From: Eubacteriales bacterium
GTDB taxonomy: Bacteria > Bacillota > Clostridia > Oscillospirales > CAG-272
Length of the DNA stretch: 64,000 nucleotides
Reading direction: 5' to 3'
NCBI GenBank assembly: GCA_045585895.1
Contig: JAZMZI010000051.1
Coordinates: 12,696 to 76,695 of the forward strand
Program-made: the position numbers and the translations under genes
Part shown: piece by piece, positions 14,083 through 39,245 of the stretch
Layout of the letters: each line of letters opens with the position of its first letter
How positions within the stretch are numbered: position 1 is the stretch's first letter
Notes under the pieces: model-generated
The model's database searches: none
The model's input: the letters and a program-made list of their open reading frames with translations, nothing else
Told to the model about the DNA's origin: nothing

Positions 14083-14607
14083 TTATTTTTTTAACATCTT
14101 TTCAAACAACGGATAGACCGTTTCAAAATCAGCGCTTTCCATAGACCATGATATAAGCGCCTCGGAAATGAATTCTGCCGTAAATCTCGGTTCTTCTACC
14201 CTTTTCAGCTCGCATAACGGCAGGATAAAATCCGCGATCTGAGCGCGAAGCATTTTATGCCGTGAGGAATAGCCCGTGGGCATAAGCTTTTCCGCATCGG
14301 GGTCGGAAAACAGCTCTTTGTTTTCATCGGCAAAGGCTATAAGCAGATCGTATATTCCTTTTAAGAGAGTTTTGGGTTCGTCGGCGGGAAGGCAAGCCAT
14401 AGCGTTAAGATAGGTCTTCCAATCTTCAAAAACAAAGGTCGCAACCAGCATTTCCTTTGATTCGAAATAATTATATACTGTTCCAACACCCACGCCGCAC
14501 GCGTTTGCGACCGAACGAACGGTGGTTTTTGCATACCCCTGCTCCGCTATCTGCTTTTTCGCCTCGGCAAGGAGCTGCTCTCGCAGATTTTCAATGATCT
14601 TCGGCAT
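14083..14607 (-). CDS. TetR/AcrR family transcriptional regulator
   Basis: TTVRSVANACGVGVGTVYNYFESKE HTH. Confidence 0.85.
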   Translation of the reverse strand: MPKIIENLREQLLAEAKKQIAEQGYAKTTVRSVANACGVGVGTVYNYFESKEMLVATFVFEDWKTYLNAMACLPADEPKTLLKGIYDLLIAFADENKELFSDPDAEKLMPTGYSSRHKMLRAQIADFILPLCELKRVEEPRFTAEFISEALISWSMESADFETVYPLFEKMLKK

Positions 14608-16063: not shown

Positions 16064-16256
16064 AATACACCTCAAAAGCTTATTTTTTCTTATTATATCA
16101 CAAAATCGGCGATTTTTCAACGCCGCTTGCGATTTCGGTTAAATTTTTTCGTCAAAACACGGTTTCTTTCGAGAAATTTTTCTAATAATTATTGACTTTA
16201 TTTGCATTTCATGCTATCATATTAATAAAGAATTTTAATCCAAAAGGAGATCTTTT

Positions 16257-16721
16257 ATGGCAAAGAAAAAGCTTTTTGACACCAATCTTTTCTCCGCTAT
16301 CATCTACGTGGCTCTCGGTCTGCTTCTCATCATTTTCCCCGGTGAAGCGCTCAATTGGGCTATGACCCTCGGCGGAATCTTCTTCTTGATCTTCGGTATT
16401 CTCGAGCTTGTCAAGAAGAATTGGTTTGGCGGCGCCGTCAGCATCATCATCGGAATCGTCATTCTCGTTCTCGGCTGGACGCTGGTTTGGCTGGTTCTTC
16501 TGGTTCTCGGAATCCTCGTTGCTATCAAGGGTATTATCGCTCTTATCGACGCGCTTAAGAAGAAAAAGAAGAACACTCTTTCCATCGTTTTTGCCGTCCT
16601 TACCATCGTCGTAGGTATCGTCCTCGCTTTCGGTAACGCTCTTACCATCTTGACCATCATCGCAGGCGTCCTTCTCGTCGTAAACGGAATTCTCGGACTC
16701 CTCTCTGCCTTCAAAAAGTAA
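16257..16721 (+). CDS. small multi-pass membrane protein (DUF308/HdeD-like)
   Basis: Repeated GxxxG-rich helices. It is preceded by TTGACT-17-TATCAT (16192-16220) and AAAGGAGA. Confidence 0.55.
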   Translation: MAKKKLFDTNLFSAIIYVALGLLLIIFPGEALNWAMTLGGIFFLIFGILELVKKNWFGGAVSIIIGIVILVLGWTLVWLVLLVLGILVAIKGIIALIDALKKKKKNTLSIVFAVLTIVVGIVLAFGNALTILTIIAGVLLVVNGILGLLSAFKK

Positions 16722-17369
16722 GATCGATTTAATGTCTCGCCGATAAACCGACGAAATTTCAGAGTTAAAAAGGTTGCTTCGTAAGGGACTGTACTCTTAA
16801 GGACAGTTTTTTGAATTGAATAGAATACATTATCTACCGACAGAAAAAGGACAGAGAGTGCCAAAGCATTCTCTGTCCTCTTTTCTTGACAAGCACTGCA
16901 TTTGTAGACACAAATGCGTATGGTGAATTTACAACTACGTTCCCGAAGAATAATTCGTTTCCCTGCCCCTCTCGGCACAAACCGAAAGGGGCATTTTGCG
17001 TCGTTGGGCATTATAAGTTTTTTGGAGAATTAAAAAATCAAACAAATAGGTGCATCCTCATCCACCGCGGAGCGGTCATCGGTCGCCCGTTCGTCGGTTT
17101 TAAATCGTTCCTCACGGGACGTCGAGGCAGGCATAGCCGTATAGAGACGTCCCCACGACCGCGGAATCGTTTAAAGTCCTTTTACGGTAAGGGATTGGTG
17201 AACGTTCAAACGTAGGGGAGGGGCTCCTCCCGTTAACATTATTATTGAACGTTCGCCACCGCGGGCGGCAATGACCGCCCCTACGGTTATCCCAAATCCA
17301 ATTTAAAATTTATAAAAATTCATTTTTCAAAAAATGTCAATACTTTTGAATATTTTTTCAAAAAACCTA

Positions 17370-17398
17370 TTGACAAATAAGCAAAACGGGAGTATAAT
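17370..17398 (+). promoter_or_regulatory. promoter P1 (TTGACA-17-TATAAT) of the leader transcript
   Basis: TTGACA at 17370-17375 and TATAAT at 17393-17398. Confidence 0.7.
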
Positions 17399-17429
17399 GT
17401 GTAACATAATTCACGAAAGGAGAGCAGAA

Positions 17430-17513
17430 ATGTTCGCATACGAGTATTTTTATTACTTTTATTATTTTGGCAAGGGCTGCCCGTCTTTTGTGGAGAGTGA
17501 GTTTCGATATTGA
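17430..17513 (+). CDS. 27-aa Phe/Tyr-rich leader peptide MFAYEYFYYFYYFGKGCPSFVESEFRY
   Basis: AAAGGAGAG RBS lies 6 nt upstream. Ten of residues 2-13 are Phe (4) or Tyr (6). It is too short to appear in the ORF track; hand translated. Confidence 0.6.
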   Translation: MFAYEYFYYFYYFGKGCPSFVESEFRY

Positions 17514-17543
17514 AGCTCAGGTGGAAACAAAAATACGGTCGGT

Positions 17544-17593
17544 CCGCATTCGTCGTGCAAGGCACATCGAAAATGCGGATTTTTTGTTTTTTT
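17544..17593 (+). terminator. attenuator terminator downstream of the leader ORF
   Basis: CCGCATT...AATGCGG stem with internal pairs, followed by ATTTTTTGTTTTTTT. Confidence 0.7.
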
Positions 17594-17698
17594 AACGCAA
17601 AAAAACAAGCCTTATAAAACACAAGAGCTTCACGCCGAAAAAAAACGGCAAAAAAAGTGAAAAAAGCTTAAAAAAGCTTAAAAAAAGTCAATTATTCA

Positions 17699-17727
17699 TT
17701 GACAAATATATGATTATATGATATAAT
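17699..17727 (+). promoter_or_regulatory. promoter P2 (TTGACA-17-TATAAT) directly upstream of the permease gene
   Basis: TTGACA at 17699-17704 and TATAAT at 17722-17727. It shares ATTGACAAATA with P1. Confidence 0.6.
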
Positions 17728-17779
17728 ACTTCTATTGTTTTTTTATAAAGCAATACGCAGAGACACGAAGGAGACCAAC

Positions 17780-19339
17780 ATGATCTTAGATTACATAATT
17801 CTCGCCATATACGCCGCGGCAATGGTAGGCGTGGCAATATACACCCACAACCGCTCGGGATCGGTCAACGACTTTCTGCTTGCGGGCAAAAAGGGACTCA
17901 ACGGCTGGATGACAGCCTTCGCATACGGCACCACCTACTTTTCGGCAGTTATCTTTATCGGTTACGCGGGTCAGTTCGGCAAGCAATTCGGTCTTGCTTC
18001 GATCTGGATAGGCATCGGCAACGCTATTATCGGTACTCTTTTCGCTTGGCTGGTTTTGGCTAAGAGAACGAAAAATATGACCCGCCGTCTCGAGGCGAAA
18101 ACCATGCCCGAGTTTTTTGAAAAGAGATACGGCAGCAAAAATCTTAAATTGGTTACTGCCGTTATAATCTTCATTTTCCTCATTCCCTACTCCGCTTCGG
18201 TCTACAACGGACTCAGCGCCCTTTTCGAGACGGTCTTCGGAATCGACGGCTGGATGGTGATGATAGCGCTTGCGGCTCTCACCGCGCTCTACCTCTTCTT
18301 CGGCGGCTATTTCGCTACCGCCCTCTCGGATTTCATTCAGGGAATCATTATGATAATCGGCGTGGCTCTTATGGTCTTCTGCTTTATGAACCACGAAAAC
18401 GTAAGCTGGAATATATCCGAGCTTGTAAACGATAACAACCTTACCTGGTTCACCTTCGGCAACGATAACGCTTCGGGAATCTACGGCACGACGGTCTCGC
18501 TTATCTCGCTGACCCTTCTTACCTCTCTCGGCGTTTGGGCGCTCCCCCAGACTATTCACAAATACTACGCCATCAGAGACAAGAAGGCTATAAAGCAGGG
18601 CATCATCGTCAGCACCGCTTTTGCACTCATCATCGGTGCGGCGGCTTATTTCACGGGTGCTCTCAGCCTGTTCTTCGGCGAAGAGCTTGCCGAGGCGGGT
18701 GTTTCCAATAACTATTCCCTTATAATCCCCACGATGCTCAAGGTAGTTATCCCCACGGGACTTATGGGAGTTATCGCGGTGCTTATCCTCTCCGCAAGTA
18801 TGTCCACACTTTCGTCGGTATCGCTTGCAAGTGCGTCGGTCATTGCCGTTGACCTTTACAAGGGCGCGGTCAACAAGAAGGCAAGCGATAAAAAGACCAA
18901 CACCGTTATGAGAATTCTTTGCCTCGTATTCGTGGCTATTTCGGTAATTCTCGCAATTCTCAACGAGGAATTCGGCATCGCCGCTATCGCTTATATGATG
19001 GGACTTAGCTGGGGAACGCTTGCGGGCTGCTTTATGGGTCCTTACGTTCTCGGCGTGCTCTGGAAAAGAGTTACCAAGAGCGCGGCGTGGGCTTCGGTCA
19101 TCAGCTCACTCATATTGACCGCGACTCTTATAGTCGTGCTCGGCTTTGACAAAAACGGTTGGAGCTGCGATTTCGGTACCGCTCTCCAAAGCGGCGTCGG
19201 CTGCTCTCCCCTCATCGGCGTTATCTGTATGATATTCTCTCTGATAATAACCGTTGCCGTTACCCTCTTTACCAAGAAGCCATCCGACGAAATACTTTAC
19301 AATGCATTTGATAAGCCCATTGAGAATGAAATAAAATAA
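17780..19339 (+). CDS. sodium:solute symporter (SSS) family permease
   Basis: About 13 TM helices. Start chosen at MILDYII with a GAAGGAG RBS; the ORF-track start at 17735 lacks an RBS. Confidence 0.75.
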   Translation: MILDYIILAIYAAAMVGVAIYTHNRSGSVNDFLLAGKKGLNGWMTAFAYGTTYFSAVIFIGYAGQFGKQFGLASIWIGIGNAIIGTLFAWLVLAKRTKNMTRRLEAKTMPEFFEKRYGSKNLKLVTAVIIFIFLIPYSASVYNGLSALFETVFGIDGWMVMIALAALTALYLFFGGYFATALSDFIQGIIMIIGVALMVFCFMNHENVSWNISELVNDNNLTWFTFGNDNASGIYGTTVSLISLTLLTSLGVWALPQTIHKYYAIRDKKAIKQGIIVSTAFALIIGAAAYFTGALSLFFGEELAEAGVSNNYSLIIPTMLKVVIPTGLMGVIAVLILSASMSTLSSVSLASASVIAVDLYKGAVNKKASDKKTNTVMRILCLVFVAISVILAILNEEFGIAAIAYMMGLSWGTLAGCFMGPYVLGVLWKRVTKSAAWASVISSLILTATLIVVLGFDKNGWSCDFGTALQSGVGCSPLIGVICMIFSLIITVAVTLFTKKPSDEILYNAFDKPIENEIK

Positions 19340-19358
19340 ACCAAAGAAGGAAAAAATA

Positions 19359-20660
19359 ATGATCTGGTCAAAAGAAGAGACCCTCCCCCGTGAGGAAATA
19401 GAAAAAATACAGCTTGAACGCTTGCAGGAGACCGTAAACCGAGTTTACGCAAACGTAGAGCCTTACAGAAAAAAGATGGACGAGGCGGGCGTGAAGCCCG
19501 AGGATATAAGATCCCTCGCAGACCTCAAAAAGCTCCCCTTCGTCACCAAGCAGGATATGAGAGACAACTACCCCTTCGGTCTCTTTGCAGTCCCCAAGGA
19601 TAAGCTCGTGAGAATTCACGCCTCCAGCGGTACTACGGGCAAGCCCACCGTTGTCGGCTACACTCAGGGCGACCTTGAGACCTGGACGGAATGTGTTTCG
19701 CGTATCGCTTGCATGGGCGGCGCGACCGAAAAGGACGTAGCGCAGATCTGCTTCGGCTACGGTATGTTTACGGGTGCGCTCGGACTTCACTACGGTCTTG
19801 AAAATATAGGCGCGGCTATCGTCCCCTCCTCCACGGGCAACTCCGAAAAGCAGATAATGTATATGCAGGACTTCGAGACCTCGCTCTTAGTTGCAACTCC
19901 CTCTTACGCGCTTCGCTTGGCGGAGGTCGCAAGAGAGATGGGCATCGACCCCGCAAAGGATCTTAAGGTCAAGATAGCTCTCGTCGGAAGTGAGCTTCTC
20001 ACCGACGCTATGCGCGAAGAAATGCACAAATATTGGGGCGAGGATATTAAGATAACCTCCAACTACGGTATGAGCGAGCTTATGGGCCCCGGTGTTTCGG
20101 GTGAGTGTCTTGAGGTTTGCGGCATGCACATCAACGAGGACTTCTTCATCCCCGAAATAATCGATCCCGCAACGGGCGAGGTCCTTCCCGCAGGCGAACA
20201 GGGCGAGCTTGTTATCACCTGCATCAAGAAGGAAGGAATTCCGCTTATCCGTTACAGAACGAAGGATATTACAAGACTCTTCTACGAGAAGTGCAAGTGC
20301 GGCAGAACCTTCTGCCGTATGGAAAACCTCTCGGGAAGAAGCGACGATATGCTGAAGATCCGCGGAGTAAACGTATTCCCCAGCCAGATCGAAGAGGTCA
20401 TCCTCAGCATCGAGGAGCTTGGTCCTCACTACGAGATAGTGCTTGAACGCGAAGGATATCTCGATAAGCTTACGGTGAAAGTCGAGCTTGCGCAGATCAC
20501 CGACTCCTTCGCAACTCTTGAAAGAATTTCCAAGACTCTCAAGAATAAGCTTAAAATAATGCTGGGTCTCGACGCGAAGATAATGCTTGAATCCCCCAAT
20601 ACCCTCCAGAGATTCGAGGGCAAGGCAAAGAGAGTAAAAGACCTCAGAAACATTAAATAA
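19359..20660 (+). CDS. paaK: phenylacetate-CoA ligase family (aryl-acid AMP-forming ligase), paralogue 1
   Basis: Canonical PaaK N-terminus: LPFVTKQDMRDNYPFGLFAVP...IHASSGTTGKPTVVGYT. Confidence 0.85.
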   Translation: MIWSKEETLPREEIEKIQLERLQETVNRVYANVEPYRKKMDEAGVKPEDIRSLADLKKLPFVTKQDMRDNYPFGLFAVPKDKLVRIHASSGTTGKPTVVGYTQGDLETWTECVSRIACMGGATEKDVAQICFGYGMFTGALGLHYGLENIGAAIVPSSTGNSEKQIMYMQDFETSLLVATPSYALRLAEVAREMGIDPAKDLKVKIALVGSELLTDAMREEMHKYWGEDIKITSNYGMSELMGPGVSGECLEVCGMHINEDFFIPEIIDPATGEVLPAGEQGELVITCIKKEGIPLIRYRTKDITRLFYEKCKCGRTFCRMENLSGRSDDMLKIRGVNVFPSQIEEVILSIEELGPHYEIVLEREGYLDKLTVKVELAQITDSFATLERISKTLKNKLKIMLGLDAKIMLESPNTLQRFEGKAKRVKDLRNIK

Positions 20661-20682
20661 TCCCCGAAAGGAACTACATAAA

Positions 20683-22425
20683 ATGGCAAACAAAACAATA
20701 ATGCTGGGCAACGAAGCAATTGCAAGAGGCGCATACGAGGCAGGCGTTAAGGTCTCCAGCGCGTATCCCGGAACCCCCAGCACCGAGATAAGCGAGTATC
20801 TCGCAAAATACGACGAGGTCTACACGGAATGGGCGCCCAATGAAAAGGTAGCGGCTGAGGTGGCGATCGGTGCATCTATCGCGGGCGTGAGATCTATGGC
20901 TTGCATGAAGCACGTCGGTCTCAACGTGGCAAGTGACCCTCTCTACACCTTCGCATACACAGGCGTTAACGGCGGTTCGGTCATCATCGTTGCCGACGAC
21001 CCCGGTATGGCAAGCTCGCAGAACGAGCAGGACACCAGAATGATCGCCCGCGCGGCTCACGTTCCGGTGCTTGAGCCCTCCGACAGCCAGGAAGCAAAGG
21101 ATTTCGTTAAGTACGGATACGAGCTCAGCGAGGAATACGACACACCCGTGATCCTCCGCACTACCACGAAGCTTGCTCACTCCCAGAGTGCAGTCGAGCT
21201 TTGCGACAGAGCCCCGGTAGCCGACAAAGAATACACCCGTCAGGTGCCCAAGTACGTTATGATGCCCGCAAGCGCTATCGGCAGACATATCGCAGTCGAG
21301 GCAAGAGAAAACAGAATGGCGGCTGACGCGGCGACCTTCCCCGTAAACAAGCTTGAAATAAACGACAAAAAACTCGGTTTTATCACCTGCGGTATCGCTT
21401 ATCAGTATGTTAAGGAAGCGTTCCCCACGGCAAGCGTGCTGAAGTTCGGTCTTGTCAATCCTCTTTCCAAGAAGCTGGTCGACGATTTTATGGCTGAGGT
21501 TGAAAACGTTTACGTTTTCGAGGAGCTTGAATCGGTGATCGAAGATCAGGTTCGAGCTTGGGGCTATAATAACGTAAAGGGTAAGGACGTATTTACCCGT
21601 CAGGGAGAATACAGCGTTAACCTTCTCAAAAAAGTTATTCTCGGTGAGAGTGACGCCGTTTTCGAAAAGCAGGACGCTCCCGCTCGTCCTCCCATTCTCT
21701 GCCCCGGTTGCCCTCACAGAAGCGTTTACTCCGTGCTTAATAAGCTTAAGATCCACGCGGCGGGCGACATCGGCTGCTACACCCTCGGTGCGGTCGCTCC
21801 TTTGAGTGTTGTCGACACCACCATCTGCATGGGTGCCAGCATTTCCTCCCTCCACGGTATGGAAAAGGCGAAAGGCAAGGACTACGTCAAGAACTGGGTT
21901 GCCGTTATCGGTGACTCCACCTTCCTCCACACGGGTGTCAACTCGCTTATGAATATGGTCTACAACAAGGCGACGGGCACGGTCATGATACTCGACAACC
22001 GCACCACGGGTATGACGGGACATCAAGATCACGCCGCTACGGGTAAGACCTTAAAGGGCGAGGAGACCAATGCCGTCGATCTTGTAGAGCTTTGTCACGC
22101 GGTTGGAGTTAAGAATGTGATAGAGGTCAACGCATTTGACGTTGAGGGACTTACCAAGGTCGTTAAGGAAAGCGTTGCAAGCGATGAATTGACGGTCATT
22201 ATCACCAAGTCGCCCTGCGTTCTCTTGAAGGGTCAGAAATTCCCCAACAAGTGCGTAGCCGACCCCGAAAAGTGCCGCAAGTGCGGTATGTGCTTGAAGA
22301 TAGGCTGCCCCGCGATCACAAAGCAGGCTGACGGCACCATCAAGATCGACGAAACTATGTGCAACGGTTGCGGTCTTTGCAAGAGCTATTGCAAATTCGG
22401 CGCTATTGAAACCGCAGCGAAGTGA
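20683..22425 (+). CDS. iorA: indolepyruvate:ferredoxin oxidoreductase subunit alpha
   Basis: LGNEAIARGAYEAGV..AYPGTPSTEI. TPP region GDIGCYTLG...GDSTFLHTG. C-terminal 2x[4Fe-4S] motifs CRKCGMC...C and CNGCGLC...C. Confidence 0.9.
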   Translation: MANKTIMLGNEAIARGAYEAGVKVSSAYPGTPSTEISEYLAKYDEVYTEWAPNEKVAAEVAIGASIAGVRSMACMKHVGLNVASDPLYTFAYTGVNGGSVIIVADDPGMASSQNEQDTRMIARAAHVPVLEPSDSQEAKDFVKYGYELSEEYDTPVILRTTTKLAHSQSAVELCDRAPVADKEYTRQVPKYVMMPASAIGRHIAVEARENRMAADAATFPVNKLEINDKKLGFITCGIAYQYVKEAFPTASVLKFGLVNPLSKKLVDDFMAEVENVYVFEELESVIEDQVRAWGYNNVKGKDVFTRQGEYSVNLLKKVILGESDAVFEKQDAPARPPILCPGCPHRSVYSVLNKLKIHAAGDIGCYTLGAVAPLSVVDTTICMGASISSLHGMEKAKGKDYVKNWVAVIGDSTFLHTGVNSLMNMVYNKATGTVMILDNRTTGMTGHQDHAATGKTLKGEETNAVDLVELCHAVGVKNVIEVNAFDVEGLTKVVKESVASDELTVIITKSPCVLLKGQKFPNKCVADPEKCRKCGMCLKIGCPAITKQADGTIKIDETMCNGCGLCKSYCKFGAIETAAK

Positions 22426-22434
22426 GGTAATACA

Positions 22435-23001
22435 ATGACTAAAAATATAATGATAGTAGGAGTTGGCGGTCAGGGCACGCTCCTTACAAGCAGAATAATC
22501 GGTAAGACCGCACTTGAACAGGGTCTCGACGTAAAAATTTCCGAGGTCCACGGTATGGCTCAAAGAGGCGGCAGCGTAGTAACCTTCGTCCGCTTCGGTG
22601 AAAAGGTTTTCGAGCCCGTTGTCGAAGAGGGTCAGGCAGATGTTATCATCGCTTTCGAGCGTCTCGAGGCTCTCAGATACTCTCACTTTTTGAAGAAGGA
22701 CGGAATTTTGGTAGTTAACGATTGCCGAATCGACCCTATGACCGTCGTTATCGGAGCTAAGACCTACCCCGAAAACATCATTGAGGGTCTTGAAGAAACT
22801 CACAAGGTCATTTCCATCGACGGAATGGCTATCGCTAAAGAGCTTGGCAACAGCAAGGTTCTTAACTCCGTAGTTCTCGGCTTTGCCGCAAAGCACGTAG
22901 GATTTGACGAGGAAAACTGGCTTTCAGTAATCGAAAAGACGGTCCCCGCAAAGACAATAGACATCAACAAGGAAGCCTTCAAGAGAGGATATGAAGCGTA
23001 A
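22435..23001 (+). CDS. iorB: indolepyruvate:ferredoxin oxidoreductase subunit beta
   Basis: IVGVGGQGTLL...SEVHGMAQRGGSV. Confidence 0.9.
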   Translation: MTKNIMIVGVGGQGTLLTSRIIGKTALEQGLDVKISEVHGMAQRGGSVVTFVRFGEKVFEPVVEEGQADVIIAFERLEALRYSHFLKKDGILVVNDCRIDPMTVVIGAKTYPENIIEGLEETHKVISIDGMAIAKELGNSKVLNSVVLGFAAKHVGFDEENWLSVIEKTVPAKTIDINKEAFKRGYEA

Positions 23002-23022
23002 TTCACACAAAGGGGAAAACAT

Positions 23023-24321
23023 ATGATCTGGAATGAAACCAAAGAATGCATGAGCCGCGACGAAATGAGCGTGGTTCAAAGCGCAAGGCTTGTAAAATTG
23101 GTCGACTACGTTTACCATAACGTAGAATTCTACCGCAAAAAAATGCAGAAGGTTGGACTTATGCCCGGTGACATCAAGAGCATCGAGGATATAGTCAAGC
23201 TTCCCTTCACCACCAAGGACGACCTCAGAGATAACTACCCCTTCGGTCTTTTCGCAGTTCCCAACTCTCAGATAGTCAGGATCCACGCATCCAGCGGCAC
23301 CACGGGTAAGGCGACGGTCGTAGGCTACACTCGCCACGATCTTGACGTTTGGGCAGAATGCGTTGCCCGTTGCTTTGCTATGGCGGGCGTTGATAAAAAC
23401 GATATTATTCAGATAGCTTACGGCTACGGACTTTTCACGGGCGGTCTCGGCGCTCACGGCGGTGCTGAAAAAATTGGTGCAACGGTCGTTCCCATGAGCG
23501 TCGGTAACTCCAAGAAGCTGACCACTATGATGGTAGACTTCGGCGCCACCGCTATTGCCTGCACCCCCTCCTATCTGCTTCACATCTCCGAGGTGCTGGA
23601 GGCGGAAGGCCTTATAGATCAGATAAAGCTGAAATCCGCGATCTGCGGCGCTGAGCCTTGGACCGAAAAAATGAGACAGGAGATCGAAGCAAGGCTTCAC
23701 CTCAAAGCGTTCGACATCTACGGTCTCAGCGAGGTAATGGGTCCCGGTGTGGCTTGCGACTGTGAGTTCCACAAGGGTCTCCACGTTTGCGAAGACCACT
23801 TCTACCCCGAAGTCCTCAACAGCGCAACTCTCACTCCCGTTGCCGACGGCGAGACGGGCGAGCTTGCCTTCACTACTCTCACCAAGGAAGGAATTCCGCT
23901 CATCCGTTACAGAACGAAGGATCTTACCAGCATCGACCATTCGGTTTGCGAGTGCGGCAGAACCAGCGCGCGCATCTCACGTTTCAAGGGACGCGTGGAC
24001 GATATGCTTATTATCCGCGGAGTCAACGTATTCCCCAGTCAGGTCGAGGCGGCTCTTATCGACGTTGAAGAGGTCACTCCTCACTATATGATGATAGTAG
24101 ACAGAGTTAATAACCTTGATACACTTGAGATTCAGGTTGAGATCGATCAGAAGTTCTACACCGACGAGGTAAGAGCTATCGAGGCGCTCAACAAGAAGAT
24201 CGCCCACATAATTCAGCAGGCTCTCGGCATAAACGCCAAGATCAAGATAGTCGAGCCTCAGACTCTCGTGCGAAGCGAGGGCAAGGCTGTTCACGTTATA
24301 GACAAGCGTAAATTGGTATAA
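23023..24321 (+). CDS. paaK: phenylacetate-CoA ligase family, paralogue 2
   Basis: Same motifs as paralogue 1 (LPFTTKDDLRDNYPFGLFAVP...IHASSGTTGKATVVGYT). Identity to paralogue 1 is roughly 55-60% by eye. Confidence 0.85.
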   Translation: MIWNETKECMSRDEMSVVQSARLVKLVDYVYHNVEFYRKKMQKVGLMPGDIKSIEDIVKLPFTTKDDLRDNYPFGLFAVPNSQIVRIHASSGTTGKATVVGYTRHDLDVWAECVARCFAMAGVDKNDIIQIAYGYGLFTGGLGAHGGAEKIGATVVPMSVGNSKKLTTMMVDFGATAIACTPSYLLHISEVLEAEGLIDQIKLKSAICGAEPWTEKMRQEIEARLHLKAFDIYGLSEVMGPGVACDCEFHKGLHVCEDHFYPEVLNSATLTPVADGETGELAFTTLTKEGIPLIRYRTKDLTSIDHSVCECGRTSARISRFKGRVDDMLIIRGVNVFPSQVEAALIDVEEVTPHYMMIVDRVNNLDTLEIQVEIDQKFYTDEVRAIEALNKKIAHIIQQALGINAKIKIVEPQTLVRSEGKAVHVIDKRKLV

Positions 24322-24339
24322 TATTTAAGGAGGCTTATT

Positions 24340-24768
24340 ATGTTTGCAAAACAGTTAACGGTATTTATCGAAAACAGAACGGGCAGACTCTGCGAGGTGC
24401 TGGGCGTACTGAAGCAGAACGAAGTCAACATTCTCTCTTTGAGCCTTGCCGACACTACCGAGTTCGGTCTGCTCCGTCTTATAGTCGACCGTCCCGAGGT
24501 CGGTAAGGAAAAGCTTGCGGAACAAGGTTTTTCCTCCCTTCTCTCCGACGTTTCGATCATCAAGATCCCCCACAAGGTAGGAAGCCTTCAAGCGTTGCTT
24601 GAGGCTATTGACGAAAGCGGTGTAAATATCGAGTATATGTACGGTCTTTCGGTTGACGGAGACGATGCGTACGTTGTGCTTAAGACCAACGACGTCGTAA
24701 AGGTCGACGCTATTCTCAACGCTCATAATATCGAGACCGTTGCTTGCGATCATATCGCACAGAAGTAA
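24340..24768 (+). CDS. ACT domain-containing protein
   Basis: Two short beta-alpha-beta-beta-alpha-beta-like halves. It is a common companion of PaaK/Ior genes. Confidence 0.65.
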   Translation: MFAKQLTVFIENRTGRLCEVLGVLKQNEVNILSLSLADTTEFGLLRLIVDRPEVGKEKLAEQGFSSLLSDVSIIKIPHKVGSLQALLEAIDESGVNIEYMYGLSVDGDDAYVVLKTNDVVKVDAILNAHNIETVACDHIAQK

Positions 24769-24770
24769 TA

Positions 24771-25583
24771 ATGATAATCGATTTTCACACCCACGTCTTT
24801 CCCGACAAAATAGCTGAAAAAACTATCGACGCCTTATCCCGTAAGGCGTCGATACCTCCATTTTCAAACGGCACTTATGCCCGCCTCATGGAAAAAATGG
24901 AACAGGCTGGCGTAGATATCGCCGTAAATCTCCCCGTTGTAACCAACCCCGCTCAGTTTGAAAGCGTTAACCGCTTTGCGGCATCAATAAACGCTGAATT
25001 TGCCGCAAAAGAGCAAAAAATCATCTCTTTTGCGGGTATTCACCCTAATTGCGAGGATATCGAGAGAAAGATGGCAGAGATAAAGTCGCAAGGCTTTCTC
25101 GGTGTCAAGATACACCCCGATTATCAGGAGACTTTTTTTGACGACGGCAGATATATCACAATTCTTGAATGCGCCAAAGATCTTGATCTTGTCGTCACCA
25201 CCCACGCCGGATTTGACGGAGGCTATCCCGATTGTCCGATCCGTTGTACACCCGAAAGAGCAAGAAGGGTGATAGAAAAGGTGGGGCACAAAAAGCTTAT
25301 TTTAGCACATCTCGGCGCTAACGAGCTTATTGATGACGTTATCGAAGAGCTTTGCGGTCTCGACGTTTATTTTGATACCGCCTACGTACTTCGTTTCGTG
25401 GGTAGAGATAGATTCATGCAAATCCTTGAAAAACACGGAGAGGACAGAATACTTTTCGCCAGCGACTCGCCTTGGAGCGATATGGCGGCTGATGCAGATA
25501 TTCTGCGTTCTTACAATTTAGAAAAAGAAACCGAGGAAAAGATCTTTTGCAATAATGCAAAAACACTCCTCGGAATAGGATAA
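24771..25583 (+). CDS. amidohydrolase-2 / TIM-barrel metal-dependent hydrolase
   Basis: MIIDFHTHVFP start motif; HLG..., D..SD.PW. Start moved to 24771, just after the ACT stop. Confidence 0.65.
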   Translation: MIIDFHTHVFPDKIAEKTIDALSRKASIPPFSNGTYARLMEKMEQAGVDIAVNLPVVTNPAQFESVNRFAASINAEFAAKEQKIISFAGIHPNCEDIERKMAEIKSQGFLGVKIHPDYQETFFDDGRYITILECAKDLDLVVTTHAGFDGGYPDCPIRCTPERARRVIEKVGHKKLILAHLGANELIDDVIEELCGLDVYFDTAYVLRFVGRDRFMQILEKHGEDRILFASDSPWSDMAADADILRSYNLEKETEEKIFCNNAKTLLGIG

Positions 25584-25588
25584 AAAAT

Positions 25589-26785
25589 ATGGGAATCAAT
25601 GAAAAAACACTGGCGCTTGGCTCCAAGCGCTCTATAATCAGAGAAATATTTGAATACAGCAAGACCCGCGCGGCGGAGATCGGCGCCGAAAACGTTTTCG
25701 ACTTCAGCCTCGGAAACCCCAGCGTTCCCGCCCCCGCTGAGGTCAATAACACCATAAAAGAGCTGCTTGACACCGAAAGCAGTCTGCTGCTTCACGGCTA
25801 CACCTCGGCACAGGGTGATGCTACCGTGCGCAAGGTGATAGCGGACAGCATTAAAGAGCGTTTCGTCGTGGATATCAGCCCCAATCTCATTTATATGACC
25901 TGCGGCGCGGCGGCTTCGCTTTCGATCTGCTTAAAGGCGGTCATTGCGGAAGGAATTGACGACGAGTGTATCGTATTCGCTCCCTTCTTCACCGAATACC
26001 GCGTATTTATCGAAAACGCGGGCGGAAAGGTAGTCGTAAGCAAGCCCCGCGAGGGAGATCTGCAAATAGACGTTGCCGATTTTGAGAGCCGCATTACCGA
26101 AAAAACCAAGTGCGTCATTATCAATTCGCCCAACAACCCCAGCGGCGTAGTCTACCCCGAGGAGACCGTAAAGGCAGTTTGCGAGATACTTGAAAAAAAA
26201 TCGGCTGAATACGGCAGAGATATCTACCTTATCGCCGACGAGCCTTACAGAGAGCTGGTTTACACCGAGGTCAAAGTTCCCTATCTTATGAGCTACTACA
26301 AGAATACCTTGGTCTGCTATTCCTATTCAAAATCGCTGTCTTTGCCCGGTGAGCGTATCGGATATATCGCGGTATGCCCCGAAATGAACGACGCTCAAAG
26401 CGTCTATCTTTCGGTATGCGGCGCGGGACGCTCTCTCGGCTACGTATGCGCCCCCAGCCTCTTCCAGCAGGTTATAGCGAAATGTCAGGGCGCTAAAGTG
26501 GATATCGAGGTCTACCGCGAGAACCGCGATCTGCTCTACAACAGTCTTACCGAATACGGCTACGATTGCGTCAAGCCCGACGGAGCCTTCTACCTCTTCG
26601 TCAAGGCGCTTGAGGACGATGCTTACGCATTCTACGAGAAGGCAAAGGCGCACGAGATCCTCGTCGTTCCCTGCGACGACTTCGGCATTTCGGGCTACGT
26701 CAGGATCGCGTATTGCGTCGATAAAGCAAGAGTCGAGAACGCCCTCCCCGCGTTCAAGAAGCTGGCGGAGGAATACGGCAAATAA
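25589..26785 (+). CDS. class I/II PLP-dependent aminotransferase
   Basis: NPSGVVY, YSYSKSLSLPGERIGY (PLP lysine region). Confidence 0.85.
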   Translation: MGINEKTLALGSKRSIIREIFEYSKTRAAEIGAENVFDFSLGNPSVPAPAEVNNTIKELLDTESSLLLHGYTSAQGDATVRKVIADSIKERFVVDISPNLIYMTCGAAASLSICLKAVIAEGIDDECIVFAPFFTEYRVFIENAGGKVVVSKPREGDLQIDVADFESRITEKTKCVIINSPNNPSGVVYPEETVKAVCEILEKKSAEYGRDIYLIADEPYRELVYTEVKVPYLMSYYKNTLVCYSYSKSLSLPGERIGYIAVCPEMNDAQSVYLSVCGAGRSLGYVCAPSLFQQVIAKCQGAKVDIEVYRENRDLLYNSLTEYGYDCVKPDGAFYLFVKALEDDAYAFYEKAKAHEILVVPCDDFGISGYVRIAYCVDKARVENALPAFKKLAEEYGK

Positions 26786-26797
26786 GATATGAAAAAA

Positions 26798-26820
26798 AGC
26801 GGCGAATTCGCCGCTTTTTT
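26798..26820 (+). terminator. operon terminator
   Basis: AGCGGCGAATTCGCCGCT followed by TTTTTT. Confidence 0.8.
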
Positions 26821-36308: not shown

Positions 36309-38099
36309 TTAGCTTTCAGAGTCCTCGGTATTTACCGAAGGAGTCTCTACAGGAGTCTCCTCAATATCCTTATCATCTGGGGTTATCATTGCAACGAAAG
36401 CCTTTTCAGCTCTGCGTCTTACGACTCCGATTATCTTTTTGAGAGGAGATTCAAGCTCTTCGGGATCAACTCTGTAGTTTCCTCTTGCTACCTCTGCCTC
36501 TCTGACGACTTCTCTGTCGCTGTGGACGTCTCTCGTGGGAACGAGAACGATATCGCCCTCCTCAACGTTATTTCCGTCGGGATCGTAACGGTATTTTTTC
36601 TCTCTTCTTTCCTGCCAGAAAACGTCTATGACGTCAACGCCGGGAGCTTCAACCACAAGCTGATCTGCGGCGGATTCTTCAACCGCGGGAATAGTATCAA
36701 GAATATCCTGAACTTCCTCTTCCTCTGCGATCTCCTCTTCCTCTGCGGTTTCTTCTTCAACTATCTCGGTCTCTGCGGTTTCTTCTTCCTCAGTGACCAC
36801 CTCGACCTCTGGTATCTCCTCGGCAGTCTCGACCTCTATCTCAGGCTCTTCGATAAGCGTTTCGATCTCAGCCTCGTGCTCTGCCTCTTTCTCCTCGGGC
36901 ACGATCACGGTCTCGGTGACCTTGGGCTTTACCACTACCTTGACCACGGGACGAACCACGTTGGTAATTTTAGGCTTAACGATAGTGGTGGGCTGAGGCT
37001 CGGGACGAGGCTCAGGCTCAGGCTCGGTGTAGCCCTCGATCTTTATCTCGTAGAAATAGAGAAGCTTGTTATCGGTGGGAATAATGAACTTGGCGCAGGT
37101 CTTATCTTCGTTCTCATACATAAGTATGGGAGACTGGATAGTATCGCGTATTTCAAGCAGCTCGTCGAAGGTCTCGACCTGTATTATCTGATAACCGTAG
37201 GTATCAAATACGTTCTTGATCTTCTGGATGTAAGACTTGTACTGATTTACTATCTTCTTGACACGCGCGGTGTAGGTTATATCCTCGGTTCTCGTCAGAA
37301 GGATAAACGCAACCATTATAAGTATAACGATGGCGTCTATAATTCCGAGAACGATAGCCGCGGCTTTGAATATCTCGCTTCCCGATCCACCTGCGGCGGC
37401 AATGGTCTTAGTCTCCGCATCGGGAACGTTGGAGGTCATTTCGATATTGACCGTTTTGGTCGTAAGAGGTATACGTAATTCGGATCGGTAGCTTTCCGCG
37501 CTGTTGCTTGCGAAAGCCGAGGAATCGCTGAGCACGTCAACTTCAAGAGTGACTACGATATTGCTGGTCGTGCTTGGCAGATCGTACTTCGCCAAGAAGC
37601 TGTTAGCCACGTCGTTATACTCGTCGTAATTGATAACTACGTTTTCGCTTATAACGAGACGGTTTTCACTTTTCTGTGCCTTGTTCTGAACGTTCTTCAA
37701 TACCTTTTCTTCGTTGAGTATTGCTCTTTGGGATTTGTTGTCTATGATCTCAAGTCTTGACGTTACCTTGTAGGAATAACGATAGTTTACGTCATCCGCA
37801 TCCATATCTATCTCATAGGTCATATTGGCAATGATCTGATCGATAAGGGACGCTACGTAAGACTGACCCTGTTCAAGACGGTCTTGTTCAAAGTAATCGT
37901 TTTCCTTGAGATATACGTCATAATCGATGTTTCCGCTCTCACGGTAGTTTATATACTGAGTTTTATCGAGCTGATAAGAAACAAACAGTGATACAAGCAA
38001 CGAGAGTGTAAGCACGACTGCGACAGCCGCTTGCGCAAATATCAGAAGCGATCGGTTTTTTTGGTATTTGGCGCGTTTTTTCTTTTCCTTTTCCGACAT
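36309..38099 (-). CDS. two-TM membrane protein with ~200-aa external domain, Pro/Glu-rich acidic linker and conserved C-terminal domain
   Basis: TM at aa ~18-40 and ~236-258. EPEPEPRPEPQP plus an EEETAE-rich tract. Function unknown. Confidence 0.5.
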   Translation of the reverse strand: MSEKEKKKRAKYQKNRSLLIFAQAAVAVVLTLSLLVSLFVSYQLDKTQYINYRESGNIDYDVYLKENDYFEQDRLEQGQSYVASLIDQIIANMTYEIDMDADDVNYRYSYKVTSRLEIIDNKSQRAILNEEKVLKNVQNKAQKSENRLVISENVVINYDEYNDVANSFLAKYDLPSTTSNIVVTLEVDVLSDSSAFASNSAESYRSELRIPLTTKTVNIEMTSNVPDAETKTIAAAGGSGSEIFKAAAIVLGIIDAIVILIMVAFILLTRTEDITYTARVKKIVNQYKSYIQKIKNVFDTYGYQIIQVETFDELLEIRDTIQSPILMYENEDKTCAKFIIPTDNKLLYFYEIKIEGYTEPEPEPRPEPQPTTIVKPKITNVVRPVVKVVVKPKVTETVIVPEEKEAEHEAEIETLIEEPEIEVETAEEIPEVEVVTEEEETAETEIVEEETAEEEEIAEEEEVQDILDTIPAVEESAADQLVVEAPGVDVIDVFWQERREKKYRYDPDGNNVEEGDIVLVPTRDVHSDREVVREAEVARGNYRVDPEELESPLKKIIGVVRRRAEKAFVAMITPDDKDIEETPVETPSVNTEDSES

Positions 38100-38120
38100 T
38101 TAATGTAACCTCCTTTCTTC

Positions 38121-39245
38121 TTAATTTGAAATAATTTCTCTCAGCCACAGAGTGGGAAAACCGACAAATGGAACCTTAATGTCGGTCAACCCGACTATGT
38201 CAGCCTCGGTTCTGTATCCGAAATCGGGATCGGGATTGGCATCACCTTTCGTGTAATACCTTCTCTCTCCCTGAATATCTTCGATTTTAATTACTCTGTG
38301 TATTACGTTTGACTGTCCTTGAGAAAAGACGATGACCTGTCCTTCCTCGATTTTTTGATCATCATACTGCTCGTAGATAATCATATCGCCCTTGTTTATC
38401 TCACCCGTCATACTTTCGGTTGCAATAACCAAAGCACCGAAGCGAAACTGGTTTGATATGAGCATTGCGACGGAGACAATAATAACGACGGTAATAACGG
38501 TTAATACCGCCGAGAGCTTGCCTCCCTTTTTTTCTTTTGCGTTCTTCTTTTTCTTCTCGTAAAGTCCCATAACGAACGCAAGCAACAGTATGGGAAGAAT
38601 TATTTTGATACAGGCGGTGAGTGCGTCTGACATCGCGCTTACGTTAGGAAGTGCGTAAATATAACACATCGTTATAATACGGAAGGATATATTGGGCAGC
38701 ACTCCGAAGTTTTTTGATACGTAGTGGTAATAAAGGTTTGCGCAAAGCGCGGGGAAAAGCGTCATTCCAACAAGACTCATGAACATATTGAAATTTCTTA
38801 TTCCCGCTAAATTGGAATAGGTCAGCACTTCGACGAGAACGCAGGTGAGAAAGGTAATAAAGCTTACAAGCTTATTCTTCTGCGCTAAAAATACGCGGCG
38901 GATTATCTCTGAGGTAATGATAATGGAGAGGGTGGGAAGAACCGCAGTCCAGAAGGTCTCGGCGTTTACGAAATAGGGATTGTAGTAATAGCCCATATAA
39001 AGACCCGACATATGAAGAAGTATTACGTAGAGAGCCGCAACGACGGTGCTGATCAAAAGAACTTCTCTTTTGTATATCGATACTATGTCTCTTTTTTTAA
39101 TAATGAGACAAACTATCGGGGTTACGGGAAGCAGCAAGCAAGCCGTAACTATTTTGCTGCTTCCTAAATCCACAAAGAGAGTGATAAGGAGGACGGCAAA
39201 GGTTATAAAAGACGTTAAGTATAAAGTTTTTTTATCCTTAGACAT
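38121..39245 (-). CDS. fusion of an ~8-TM membrane domain (aa 1-260) with an archaeal/ER-type (SipW-like) signal peptidase I domain
   Basis: C-terminal domain: ATESMTGEI (Ser), GQVIVF, NVIHRVI (His), YYTKGDANPDPD (GDxN box). Confidence 0.7.
   Translation of the reverse strand: MSKDKKTLYLTSFITFAVLLITLFVDLGSSKIVTACLLLPVTPIVCLIIKKRDIVSIYKREVLLISTVVAALYVILLHMSGLYMGYYYNPYFVNAETFWTAVLPTLSIIITSEIIRRVFLAQKNKLVSFITFLTCVLVEVLTYSNLAGIRNFNMFMSLVGMTLFPALCANLYYHYVSKNFGVLPNISFRIITMCYIYALPNVSAMSDALTACIKIILPILLLAFVMGLYEKKKKNAKEKKGGKLSAVLTVITVVIIVSVAMLISNQFRFGALVIATESMTGEINKGDMIIYEQYDDQKIEEGQVIVFSQGQSNVIHRVIKIEDIQGERRYYTKGDANPDPDFGYRTEADIVGLTDIKVPFVGFPTLWLREIISN

Follow-up and report, generated by a model that had tools for sequence, protein, structure and literature searches.

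The window analysed here is a 64,000-nt stretch of contig JAZMZI010000051.1 from an Eubacteriales bacterium (Oscillospirales, CAG-272), and our subject is a short region of it that lies directly ahead of an operon for an SSS-family transporter, PaaK-like ligases and the IOR subunits IorA and IorB (SSS-paaK-iorAB). From its comparison with related loci we read this region as a leader-peptide transcription attenuator that would sense Tyr and Phe, and we put the probability of this reading at about three in four. Its parts are the following, with pairings taken from minimum free energy (MFE) folds:

17370-17398, + strand: promoter P1, TTGACA-17 nt-TATAAT, a 12/12 match to the consensus that drives the leader transcript
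17417-17422, + strand: Shine-Dalgarno sequence AAGGAG, 7 nt ahead of the leader ATG, read from the sequence
17430-17513, + strand: leader open reading frame (ORF) of 27 codons, MFAYEYFYYFYYFGKGCPSFVESEFRY, with its ATG at 17430
17433-17468, + strand: regulatory Phe/Tyr codons, codons 2-13 of the leader
17474-17491, + strand: segment A, GGGCUGCCCGUCUUUUGU, codons 15-21 of the leader, proposed as antiterminator 5' strand, paired with 17527-17545 in the MFE structure
17498-17519, + strand: hairpin B, UGAGUUUCG-AUAU-UGAAGCUCA, as folded, enclosing the leader stop codon UGA at 17511-17513
17527-17545, + strand: segment C, ACAAAAAUACGGUCGGUCC, proposed as antiterminator 3' strand and sharing its final 3 nt with the start of the terminator stem
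17543-17593, + strand: intrinsic terminator, a bulged hairpin (17543-17579, -17.5 kcal/mol) with the U-tract TTTTTTGTTTTTTT (17580-17593, U6GU7)
17594-17698, + strand: A-rich spacer of 105 nt from the terminator to P2, with no ORF and no terminator inside
17687-17703, + strand: palindrome GTCAAT-TATTC-ATTGAC at the 3' end of the spacer, overlapping the -35 of P2
17699-17727, + strand: promoter P2, TTGACA-17-TATAAT with a TG extension, a 12/12 match
17780-26785, + strand: the whole regulated operon, beginning with the SSS gene at ATG 17780

An earlier reading of this DNA from its letters and ORFs (hereafter the sequence-only reading) had reported the promoter, a strong ribosome-binding site, the 27-codon ORF and a hairpin followed by a U-tract, and all of them are found where it placed them. 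The same holds for its account of the peptide, in which residues 2-13 comprise four Phe and six Tyr (10/12 aromatic) and Trp is absent throughout. No other ORF in the six frames of the window reaches 10/12 aromatic residues. P1 is a promoter of the sigma-70 type, and the RNA from leader to terminator folds with a z-score of -4.3. A simple terminator scanner missed the hairpin at 17543-17593 because of its bulged stem, and comparison with Rfam gave no gathering-score match in the whole window and only noise at E<=10 over 16200-17800.

Tyr/Phe-rich leaders recur ahead of orthologous operons. Scanning species-representative genomes with the SSS protein gave 80 loci (about 0.7 Mb), all from metagenome-assembled genomes titled Oscillospiraceae, Acutalibacteraceae, Christensenellaceae, Eubacteriales or Clostridia and with ruminant gut as source wherever the isolate name tells one. 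We searched all loci in six frames for stop-free stretches of at most 120 aa with at least eight aromatic residues per 12. Outside the window, 12 stretches reach 8/12, and four of these are co-oriented with an orthologous SSS gene and lie no more than 100 nt upstream of it (loci L046, MKKNTSYYYAYYYFGNYYFESFQF; L063, MFYFYTAYAYYYFTTI; L079, MYYFYPVYEFYYYHLT; L080, MKLDARFNFYYAYYFYYYFE). Since such stretches are rare in 0.7 Mb and 4/12 nonetheless adjoin SSS, the leader is more than a chance occurrence. A metagenome scan with the L063 SSS protein returned some nine close relatives, three of them with a leader (L085, MKAYNNAYYGYYYFRNYYYN; L087, MTNFYRNYQYFYYFFK; L089, MFAYFYYYEYYLNFNTIPI), and about 70 other matches, distant paralogues of 41-57% identity, none of which has one. 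Contigs encoding the closest SSS homologues (86-92% identity) supplied six distinct further loci of the window's own architecture, with the leaders MFKSKYFYYFYYFGKGCPSFVEFKLDSKA (L081), MFTNKYFYYFYYFGKGCPSFVESEFRY (L083), MFVNKYFYYFYYFSLGCPSFVKSER (L166) and MFVNKYFYYFYYFSLGCPSFVRSVS (L171 and L173) and a 5'-truncated one in L175; L167 duplicates L166, and L174 repeats part of L173. Several further aromatic stretches are no leaders and represent T-run artefacts or out-of-frame matches, namely an ORF at 9269-9331 of L055 and F-rich matches in L019, L023, L036, L054, L077 and at 37978-38562 of the window.

Beyond the window, this makes 13 Tyr/Phe-rich, Trp-free mini-ORFs of 16-29 codons that lie directly upstream of, and co-oriented with, SSS-paaK-iorAB, an orthology that was checked for ten loci (L046, L063, L079, L080, L081, L083, L085, L087, L089 and L166) and rests on called genes for L171, L173 and L175. 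Each leader has 10-13 Phe plus Tyr residues, with Tyr at least as frequent as Phe in most, and across the set composition is kept and peptide sequence is not. Six are homologues of the window leader (L175, L081, L083, L166, L171, L173), and the other seven resemble it by composition (L046, L063, L079, L080, L085, L087, L089). A purine-rich Shine-Dalgarno sequence is readable ahead of every leader whose 5' part is present, except that of L085, and equivalent intrinsic terminators are present in all leader-bearing relatives. The SSS tree puts the leaders at three separate points, namely the window clade, a clade of L063, L079 and L080, and L046. The sequence-only reading had been prepared to give up the attenuator if the mini-ORF proved unconserved in related genomes; instead, similar leaders precede orthologous SSS-paaK-iorAB operons.

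The clearest case comes from the seven relatives alike by composition, which we call classic. Their order is constant, running from the terminator of the upstream gene over a promoter, a Shine-Dalgarno sequence (not visible in L085), the leader and its stop codon to a G(U)GCGG segment, an AU-rich stretch and a GC-rich terminator; in 7/7 the U-tract of the latter directly adjoins the ribosome-binding site of SSS. No promoter between terminator and SSS was detected in the three classic loci scanned, where the sole consensus promoter is the one ahead of the leader, and in the other four direct reading of the sequence finds no room for one. With no promoter past the terminator, the operon is expressed only by read-through, which is strong evidence for attenuation. 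Nascent-RNA folds from the stop codon to the terminator loop give a 2:3 antiterminator in which the GCGG segment after the stop sequesters 6-8 of the 7-9 nt of the terminator 5' arm, again in 7/7. This segment also forms a 1:2 helix of -14 to -19 kcal/mol with the codons of the Tyr/Phe run (codon-shuffle p = 0.002-0.08 over all seven leaders), usually through embedded Ala-Tyr codons GCN-UAY. The partners of this helix co-vary, with GGGCU facing AGCC or GGCC in L063 and L079 and GCGGU facing ACCGC in the rest. Helices were tested sequence by sequence because the MAFFT alignment of the seven leaders, in which L089 is misaligned, is unreliable for column-wise covariation. The stop codon has a fixed place relative to segment 2, such that a ribosome halted there would reach into segment 2, and a ribosome stalled in the Tyr/Phe run would cover segment 1 and free segment 2 for segment 3. 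With the full 1:2, 2:3 and 3:4 design in every one of them, the seven classic relatives are textbook attenuators. The class that the sequence-only reading had proposed, a ribosome-mediated Phe/Tyr attenuator ahead of an aryl-acid operon in a Firmicute, is thus supported by 13 further leaders and by an operon that depends on read-through in seven of them.

The window belongs to a second architecture that it shares with its six homologues (L175, L081, L083, L166, L171 and L173; seven loci in all, the window type), in the order P1, leader, terminator, spacer and P2. The leader is longer here and continues after the Tyr/Phe run with G/S-K/L-G-C-P-S-F-V-..., and P1 is kept wherever the 5' part of the module is present (L081, L083, L166, L171 and L173). 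Four lineages with complete modules are 77-82% identical over the 221-224 nt from the -35 of P1 to the U-tract, whereas their spacers are 21-51% identical (55-107 nt long across the type) and the four-fold sites of SSS 45-59%. The conservation concerns the nucleotide sequence, including synonymous positions, and extends into the non-coding segment C and the terminator 5' arm. This arm is invariant across the four aligned modules and reads identically in L171, L173 and L175, and the 3' arm varies at bulge and internal-loop positions. Judged by these divergence figures, the window-type module is under purifying selection and not decaying.

P2 has a wider distribution than the module. It is kept in the leaderless close relatives (L001-L004, L069, L082, L088, L091 and L164), a looser form of it is found in most of the 80 loci, and its hexamers, a T-rich motif after the -10 and a palindrome at the -35, TGTCAAT-N5-ATTGACA, are common to the window type and these leaderless relatives. 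P2 is therefore the ancestral promoter of the SSS operon, and attenuation in the window type probably adds to other control and does not replace it. The second promoter noted by the sequence-only reading is indeed present (12/12, 17699-17727), but its treatment there as a mere caveat undersells it, since the attenuator is an input added to an ancestral promoter and not the sole gate. How the module came to lie beside P2 is suggested by L166, L171 and L173, which share their upstream gene (EF-G-like with an NYN domain) with leaderless L082 at an intergenic length that differs by about 260 nt; the same upstream gene with and without the module indicates gain or loss as a unit of about 260 nt beside an intact promoter.

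Several smaller features accompany the two promoters. The -35 palindrome is found just upstream of the SSS promoter also in L001-L004, L069, L082, L088, L091, L166, L171, L173 and L175 and, as a sequence motif, is a candidate operator for a dimeric regulator. Half-sites of the palindrome lie 21 nt apart at P1 (17335-17347 and 17363-17375), beside a 12-nt direct repeat, TTTTTCAAAAAA (17323-17334 and 17354-17365). The T-rich motif immediately after the P2 -10 reads ACTTCTATTGTTTTTTTATAA at 17728-17748 and ATTTCTATTCTTTTTTAT or similar elsewhere, is present in most of L001-L080 though the proteins are only about 75% identical, and in its TTY/TAT-like content resembles the raw material of Tyr/Phe leaders.

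The window-type module might be an independent unit in which P1, the mini-ORF and the terminator make up the gene of an aromatic micropeptide or a small RNA, with the operon transcribed from P2 only, the terminator insulating it and nothing being sensed. The consensus promoter, Shine-Dalgarno sequence and strong terminator would suit such a unit, as would the second consensus promoter downstream in 7/7 window-type loci and the conservation of the peptide part YFYYFYYF..GCPSFV within the type. We nevertheless consider it unlikely. Conservation in the peptide region is of the nucleotide kind described above, taking in synonymous sites, segment C and the terminator 5' arm; the wider family keeps composition only, neither sequence nor length (16-29 aa); and in the seven classic relatives ORF and terminator form the sole transcription route into the operon. 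Nor was a Tyr/Phe unit ever found away from an SSS operon in the loci examined. The leaders likewise do not look like a small protein or a ribosomally synthesized and post-translationally modified peptide, as there is no family-wide peptide conservation and what surrounds them is the SSS/PaaK/IOR operon along with unrelated genes.

Returning to the attenuator, the switch proposed for the window type is built differently from that of the classic relatives, with segments A and C predicted to pair around hairpin B. This A-B-C domain reaches -24 to -28 kcal/mol with the same fold in all seven window-type sequences, and nascent-RNA folds give z = -1.8 to -4.1 against shuffled upstream sequence, varying with the assumed start of the free RNA. 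Hairpin B has four different sequences across the seven loci, three of its pairs with compensatory changes, and the stop codon always lies inside it. The last nucleotides of segment C, UCC (17543-17545), form the terminator-stem pairs next to the U-tract. In the folds, masking a ribosome at the stop codon leaves the terminator as the only predicted structure, and placing the stall at Phe10 gives A:C and a terminator that lacks its base. A ribosome-dependent A:C switch is therefore the best available model for the window type, as suggested by these folds. Other pairings fared worse: one between the 5' end of the leader, GUUCGCAU (17432-17439), and the terminator 3' arm, AUGCGGAU, dominates the full-length MFE structure and was rejected because its codons are not kept in L081, L083 and L166 and its site would lie under the stalled ribosome; GUGGA (17491-17495 or 17522-17526) with UCCGC gives only 5-6 bp and is broken in L081; and post-stop sequence by itself yields no antiterminator better than that of shuffled sequence.

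In the proposed mechanism, P1 would give rise to a short transcript whose 27-codon ORF opens with the run of Tyr/Phe codons. As long as charged tRNA-Tyr and tRNA-Phe are plentiful, the ribosome would cross codons 15-27, melt A and B and halt at the UGA within B; segment C, left without a partner, would allow the terminator (17543-17579) and its U-tract to form, and the transcript would end at about 17590. If either tRNA is poorly charged, the ribosome would stall in codons 2-10 and leave A free to pair with C around B. The A-B-C domain would then take three base pairs of the terminator stem beside the U-tract, and the polymerase would read through spacer and P2 into the operon. We thus infer a response to starvation for Tyr or Phe, in which the attenuated P1 transcript would add to transcription from P2 with its own candidate operator.

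Several observations weigh against this account. A stall at Phe13, the last Phe of the run, masks part of A, and the full terminator is then predicted. Among the 16 pairs of A:C, 12 are invariant, two show one-sided change (U.G to U-A) and two a single mismatch, with no double compensatory change, and A:C overlaps the terminator by only 3 nt. If no ribosome is present A:C forms, making read-through the default, and there is no 1:2 "superattenuation" state, unlike in the classic type. In all seven window-type loci a consensus P2 separates the terminator from SSS, so that attenuation cannot be the sole control. The distribution is patchy, with about 95% of the 80 species-level relatives leaderless, and L085 has no visible Shine-Dalgarno sequence. 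In this locus (1279-1307) the leader ATG follows the -10 after about 7 nt (TGTTATATT), and the leader mRNA may itself be leaderless.

Some of these points would also suit a relic, a former attenuator that P2 has made redundant and that now terminates or reads through constitutively: P2 matches the consensus perfectly, a leader is missing from most relatives, and A:C overlaps the terminator only minimally. A relic would be expected to decay like the spacer, but the module has kept its length and 77-82% identity in four lineages while the adjoining spacer and the synonymous sites are near saturation, and hairpin B has been maintained through replacement of its sequence. This makes a relic a still less probable explanation than an independent unit.

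It is very improbable that the switch is independent of ribosomes and controlled instead by protein, tRNA or metabolite, in which case the Tyr/Phe ORF would merely reflect T/A-rich sequence. The 5' regions do have a high T/A content, leaderless loci too carry TTT/TAT-like motifs behind the -10, and no covariation proves a ribosome-dependent helix in the window type. However, the aromatic run shares its frame with an ATG and follows a Shine-Dalgarno sequence in all but one of the leaders with a 5' part, it has a coding-type three-base periodicity (TAY/TTY), and the classic type has its stop codon at a constant position with respect to segment 2 and the window type within hairpin B, all at a very low chance expectation of such leaders. 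There is also no T-box motif and no Rfam family: the motif GGTGGNACCRCG is absent from the + strand (that of the SSS operon) of L001-L080, and Rfam finds no T-box in the window. Least probable of all is the antiterminator of the sequence-only reading, TTTCGAT (17502-17508) with ATCGAAA (17566-17572) in the terminator 3' arm, which are exact complements in the window and could form a weaker G.U version in L083, but whose partners both differ in L081, L166, L171 and L173, whose duplex is worth only -6.6 kcal/mol, and whose 5' strand already serves as the 5' arm of hairpin B.

The attenuator as we read it thus follows a textbook mechanism in an unusual lineage and ahead of an unusual target operon. 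Like E. coli pheA (pheL) and pheST (pheM) and the proteobacterial attenuators of trp, his, leu, thr and ilv, it would combine a short ORF carrying a run of the sensed codons with alternative antiterminator and terminator structures. It has no sequence or Rfam relationship to these and is not a member of their RNA families (Phe_leader, leu/phe leader, Trp_leader). It further differs from them in that Tyr is sensed together with Phe and outnumbers it in most leaders; in its target, an operon for aryl-acid uptake, ligase, IOR and aminotransferase functions in place of chorismate-pathway or synthetase genes; and, in the window, in an antiterminator 5' strand that lies inside the ORF, the lack of a 1:2 helix and the second promoter that follows.

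Leader-peptide attenuation is unusual yet documented in Firmicutes (PMC2965389, PMC5794164), and the remark of the sequence-only reading that this phylum generally uses T-boxes or TRAP instead was too strong, as such attenuators are described in bacilli (PMC2965389) and S. aureus (PMC5794164). The Leu-rich attenuator of S. aureus ilv-leu (PMC5794164) also works in a Firmicute alongside a second, independent control, which is CodY there and would be P2 with its candidate operator here. It concerns another amino acid and pathway, has both controls on one promoter where the window has two in tandem, and is backed by genetic and reporter evidence, whereas the evidence for the window system is comparative. 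Predicted leader-peptide cases in Lactococcus and Streptococcus are among those cited in the same paper. The His leader ahead of hisZ and a hisS paralogue in bacilli (Naville & Gautheret 2010, PMC2965389) is likewise a comparative find with a patchy distribution and a "regular" leader peptide; it differs in amino acid, genes and class (Bacilli as opposed to Clostridia/Oscillospirales), and its authors discuss attenuators that hop between genes. T-box riboswitches, the usual sensors of tRNA charging in Firmicutes, have the same physiological input as our system and likewise act through read-through of a terminator. The window has no specifier loop or T-box sequence, however, and sensing would go through translation.

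To the best of our knowledge, no Tyr-rich leader peptide has been described. Our literature search found no Tyr-rich leader and no leader ahead of an IOR operon, an absence that applies to the literature searched and is not proof of novelty, and neither Rfam nor this literature describes a Tyr and Phe leader sensor in Clostridia. The Tyr/Phe specificity and the target operon thus appear to be new. The mechanism alone would not surprise a specialist, and interest comes from the lineage, the Tyr/Phe specificity, the debated pathway and the two architectures, which make this sensor of Clostridia a small natural experiment in building and moving attenuators.

The operon downstream of P2 comprises eight genes and ends at a terminator:

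17780-19339, + strand: SSS-family transporter, monocarboxylate-type (Pfam)
19359-20660, + strand: PaaK-like AMP-forming ligase 1 (Pfam; below the NCBIfam PaaK equivalog cut-off)
20683-22425, + strand: IorA, IOR alpha subunit, passing the NCBIfam equivalog cut-off
22435-23001, + strand: IorB, IOR beta subunit, passing the NCBIfam equivalog cut-off
23023-24321, + strand: PaaK-like AMP-forming ligase 2 (Pfam; below the NCBIfam PaaK equivalog cut-off)
24340-24768, + strand: ACT-pair protein (Pfam)
24744-25583, + strand: amidohydrolase (Pfam)
25589-26785, + strand: class I/II aminotransferase (Pfam)
26793-26820: bidirectional terminator at the end of the operon

The order SSS-paaK-iorA-iorB-paaK is common to leader-bearing and leaderless loci wherever a locus is long enough to show it. 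No relevant regulator gene was found adjoining the operon, the TetR gene at 14083-14607 being part of a divergent cluster. On the other side of the leader, just upstream of P1, lies a multi-branched structure of about 225 nt with nested inverted repeats (17064-17288), closed by a long-range helix of 17069-17079 with 17271-17281 and reaching an MFE of -106 kcal/mol with z of about -4.6 on either strand. It has no Rfam match, no Pfam-bearing ORF and no homologue in any fetched locus, and could be an unknown structured RNA or the remnant of a mobile element. Two mechanically called ORFs in this area, at 16304-17011 (- strand, 235 aa) and 16886-17215 (+ strand, 109 aa), are of odd composition without a Pfam match and are probably not genes, so that the stretch of some 400 nt ahead of P1 is apparently non-coding.

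Leader-peptide attenuators induce their genes during starvation for the amino acid that is read. A Tyr/Phe leader placed before genes for a transporter, two arylacetate-type ligases, IOR and an aminotransferase therefore speaks for an operon that forms Phe and Tyr from aryl acids and does not degrade these. It would take up arylacetates, convert them to CoA thioesters, carboxylate these reductively via IOR and transaminate the products to Phe and Tyr on demand. We infer this anabolic direction, for which the leader provides regulatory evidence of an independent kind. Phe synthesis from phenylacetate occurs in rumen anaerobes (Allison 1965, as cited in PMC7356843), IOR serves M. maripaludis in making aromatic amino acids out of aryl acids (Porat et al., as cited in PMC4162585), and a 2026 paper argues that IOR beside an AMP-forming ligase may be biosynthetic (PMC13285125). 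The two PaaK-like paralogues and the ACT-pair protein share an operon whose leader reads two amino acids. There may be one ligase per aryl acid with feedback via the ACT protein, and any assignment of a given ligase to an amino acid would be speculation.

In a broader sense, the leader might serve as a functional fingerprint, marking the SSS-PaaK-IOR-(ACT)-aminotransferase operon, which is widespread in Oscillospirales from gut and rumen, as one of anabolic salvage that imports phenylacetate and 4-hydroxyphenylacetate and turns them by reductive carboxylation into Phe and Tyr in times of shortage, with the attenuator as a cassette of about 260 nt that is gained or lost upstream of a separately regulated promoter, a proposal for which we see the chances as evenly balanced. 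The direction of IOR/PaaK clusters in gut anaerobes is under current debate (PMC13285125) and bears on who makes and who uses phenylacetate and 4-hydroxyphenylacetate in gut and rumen. If the proposal is true, the leader would be the first genetic and regulatory handle on an aryl-acid route that has been known physiologically in rumen anaerobes since 1965.

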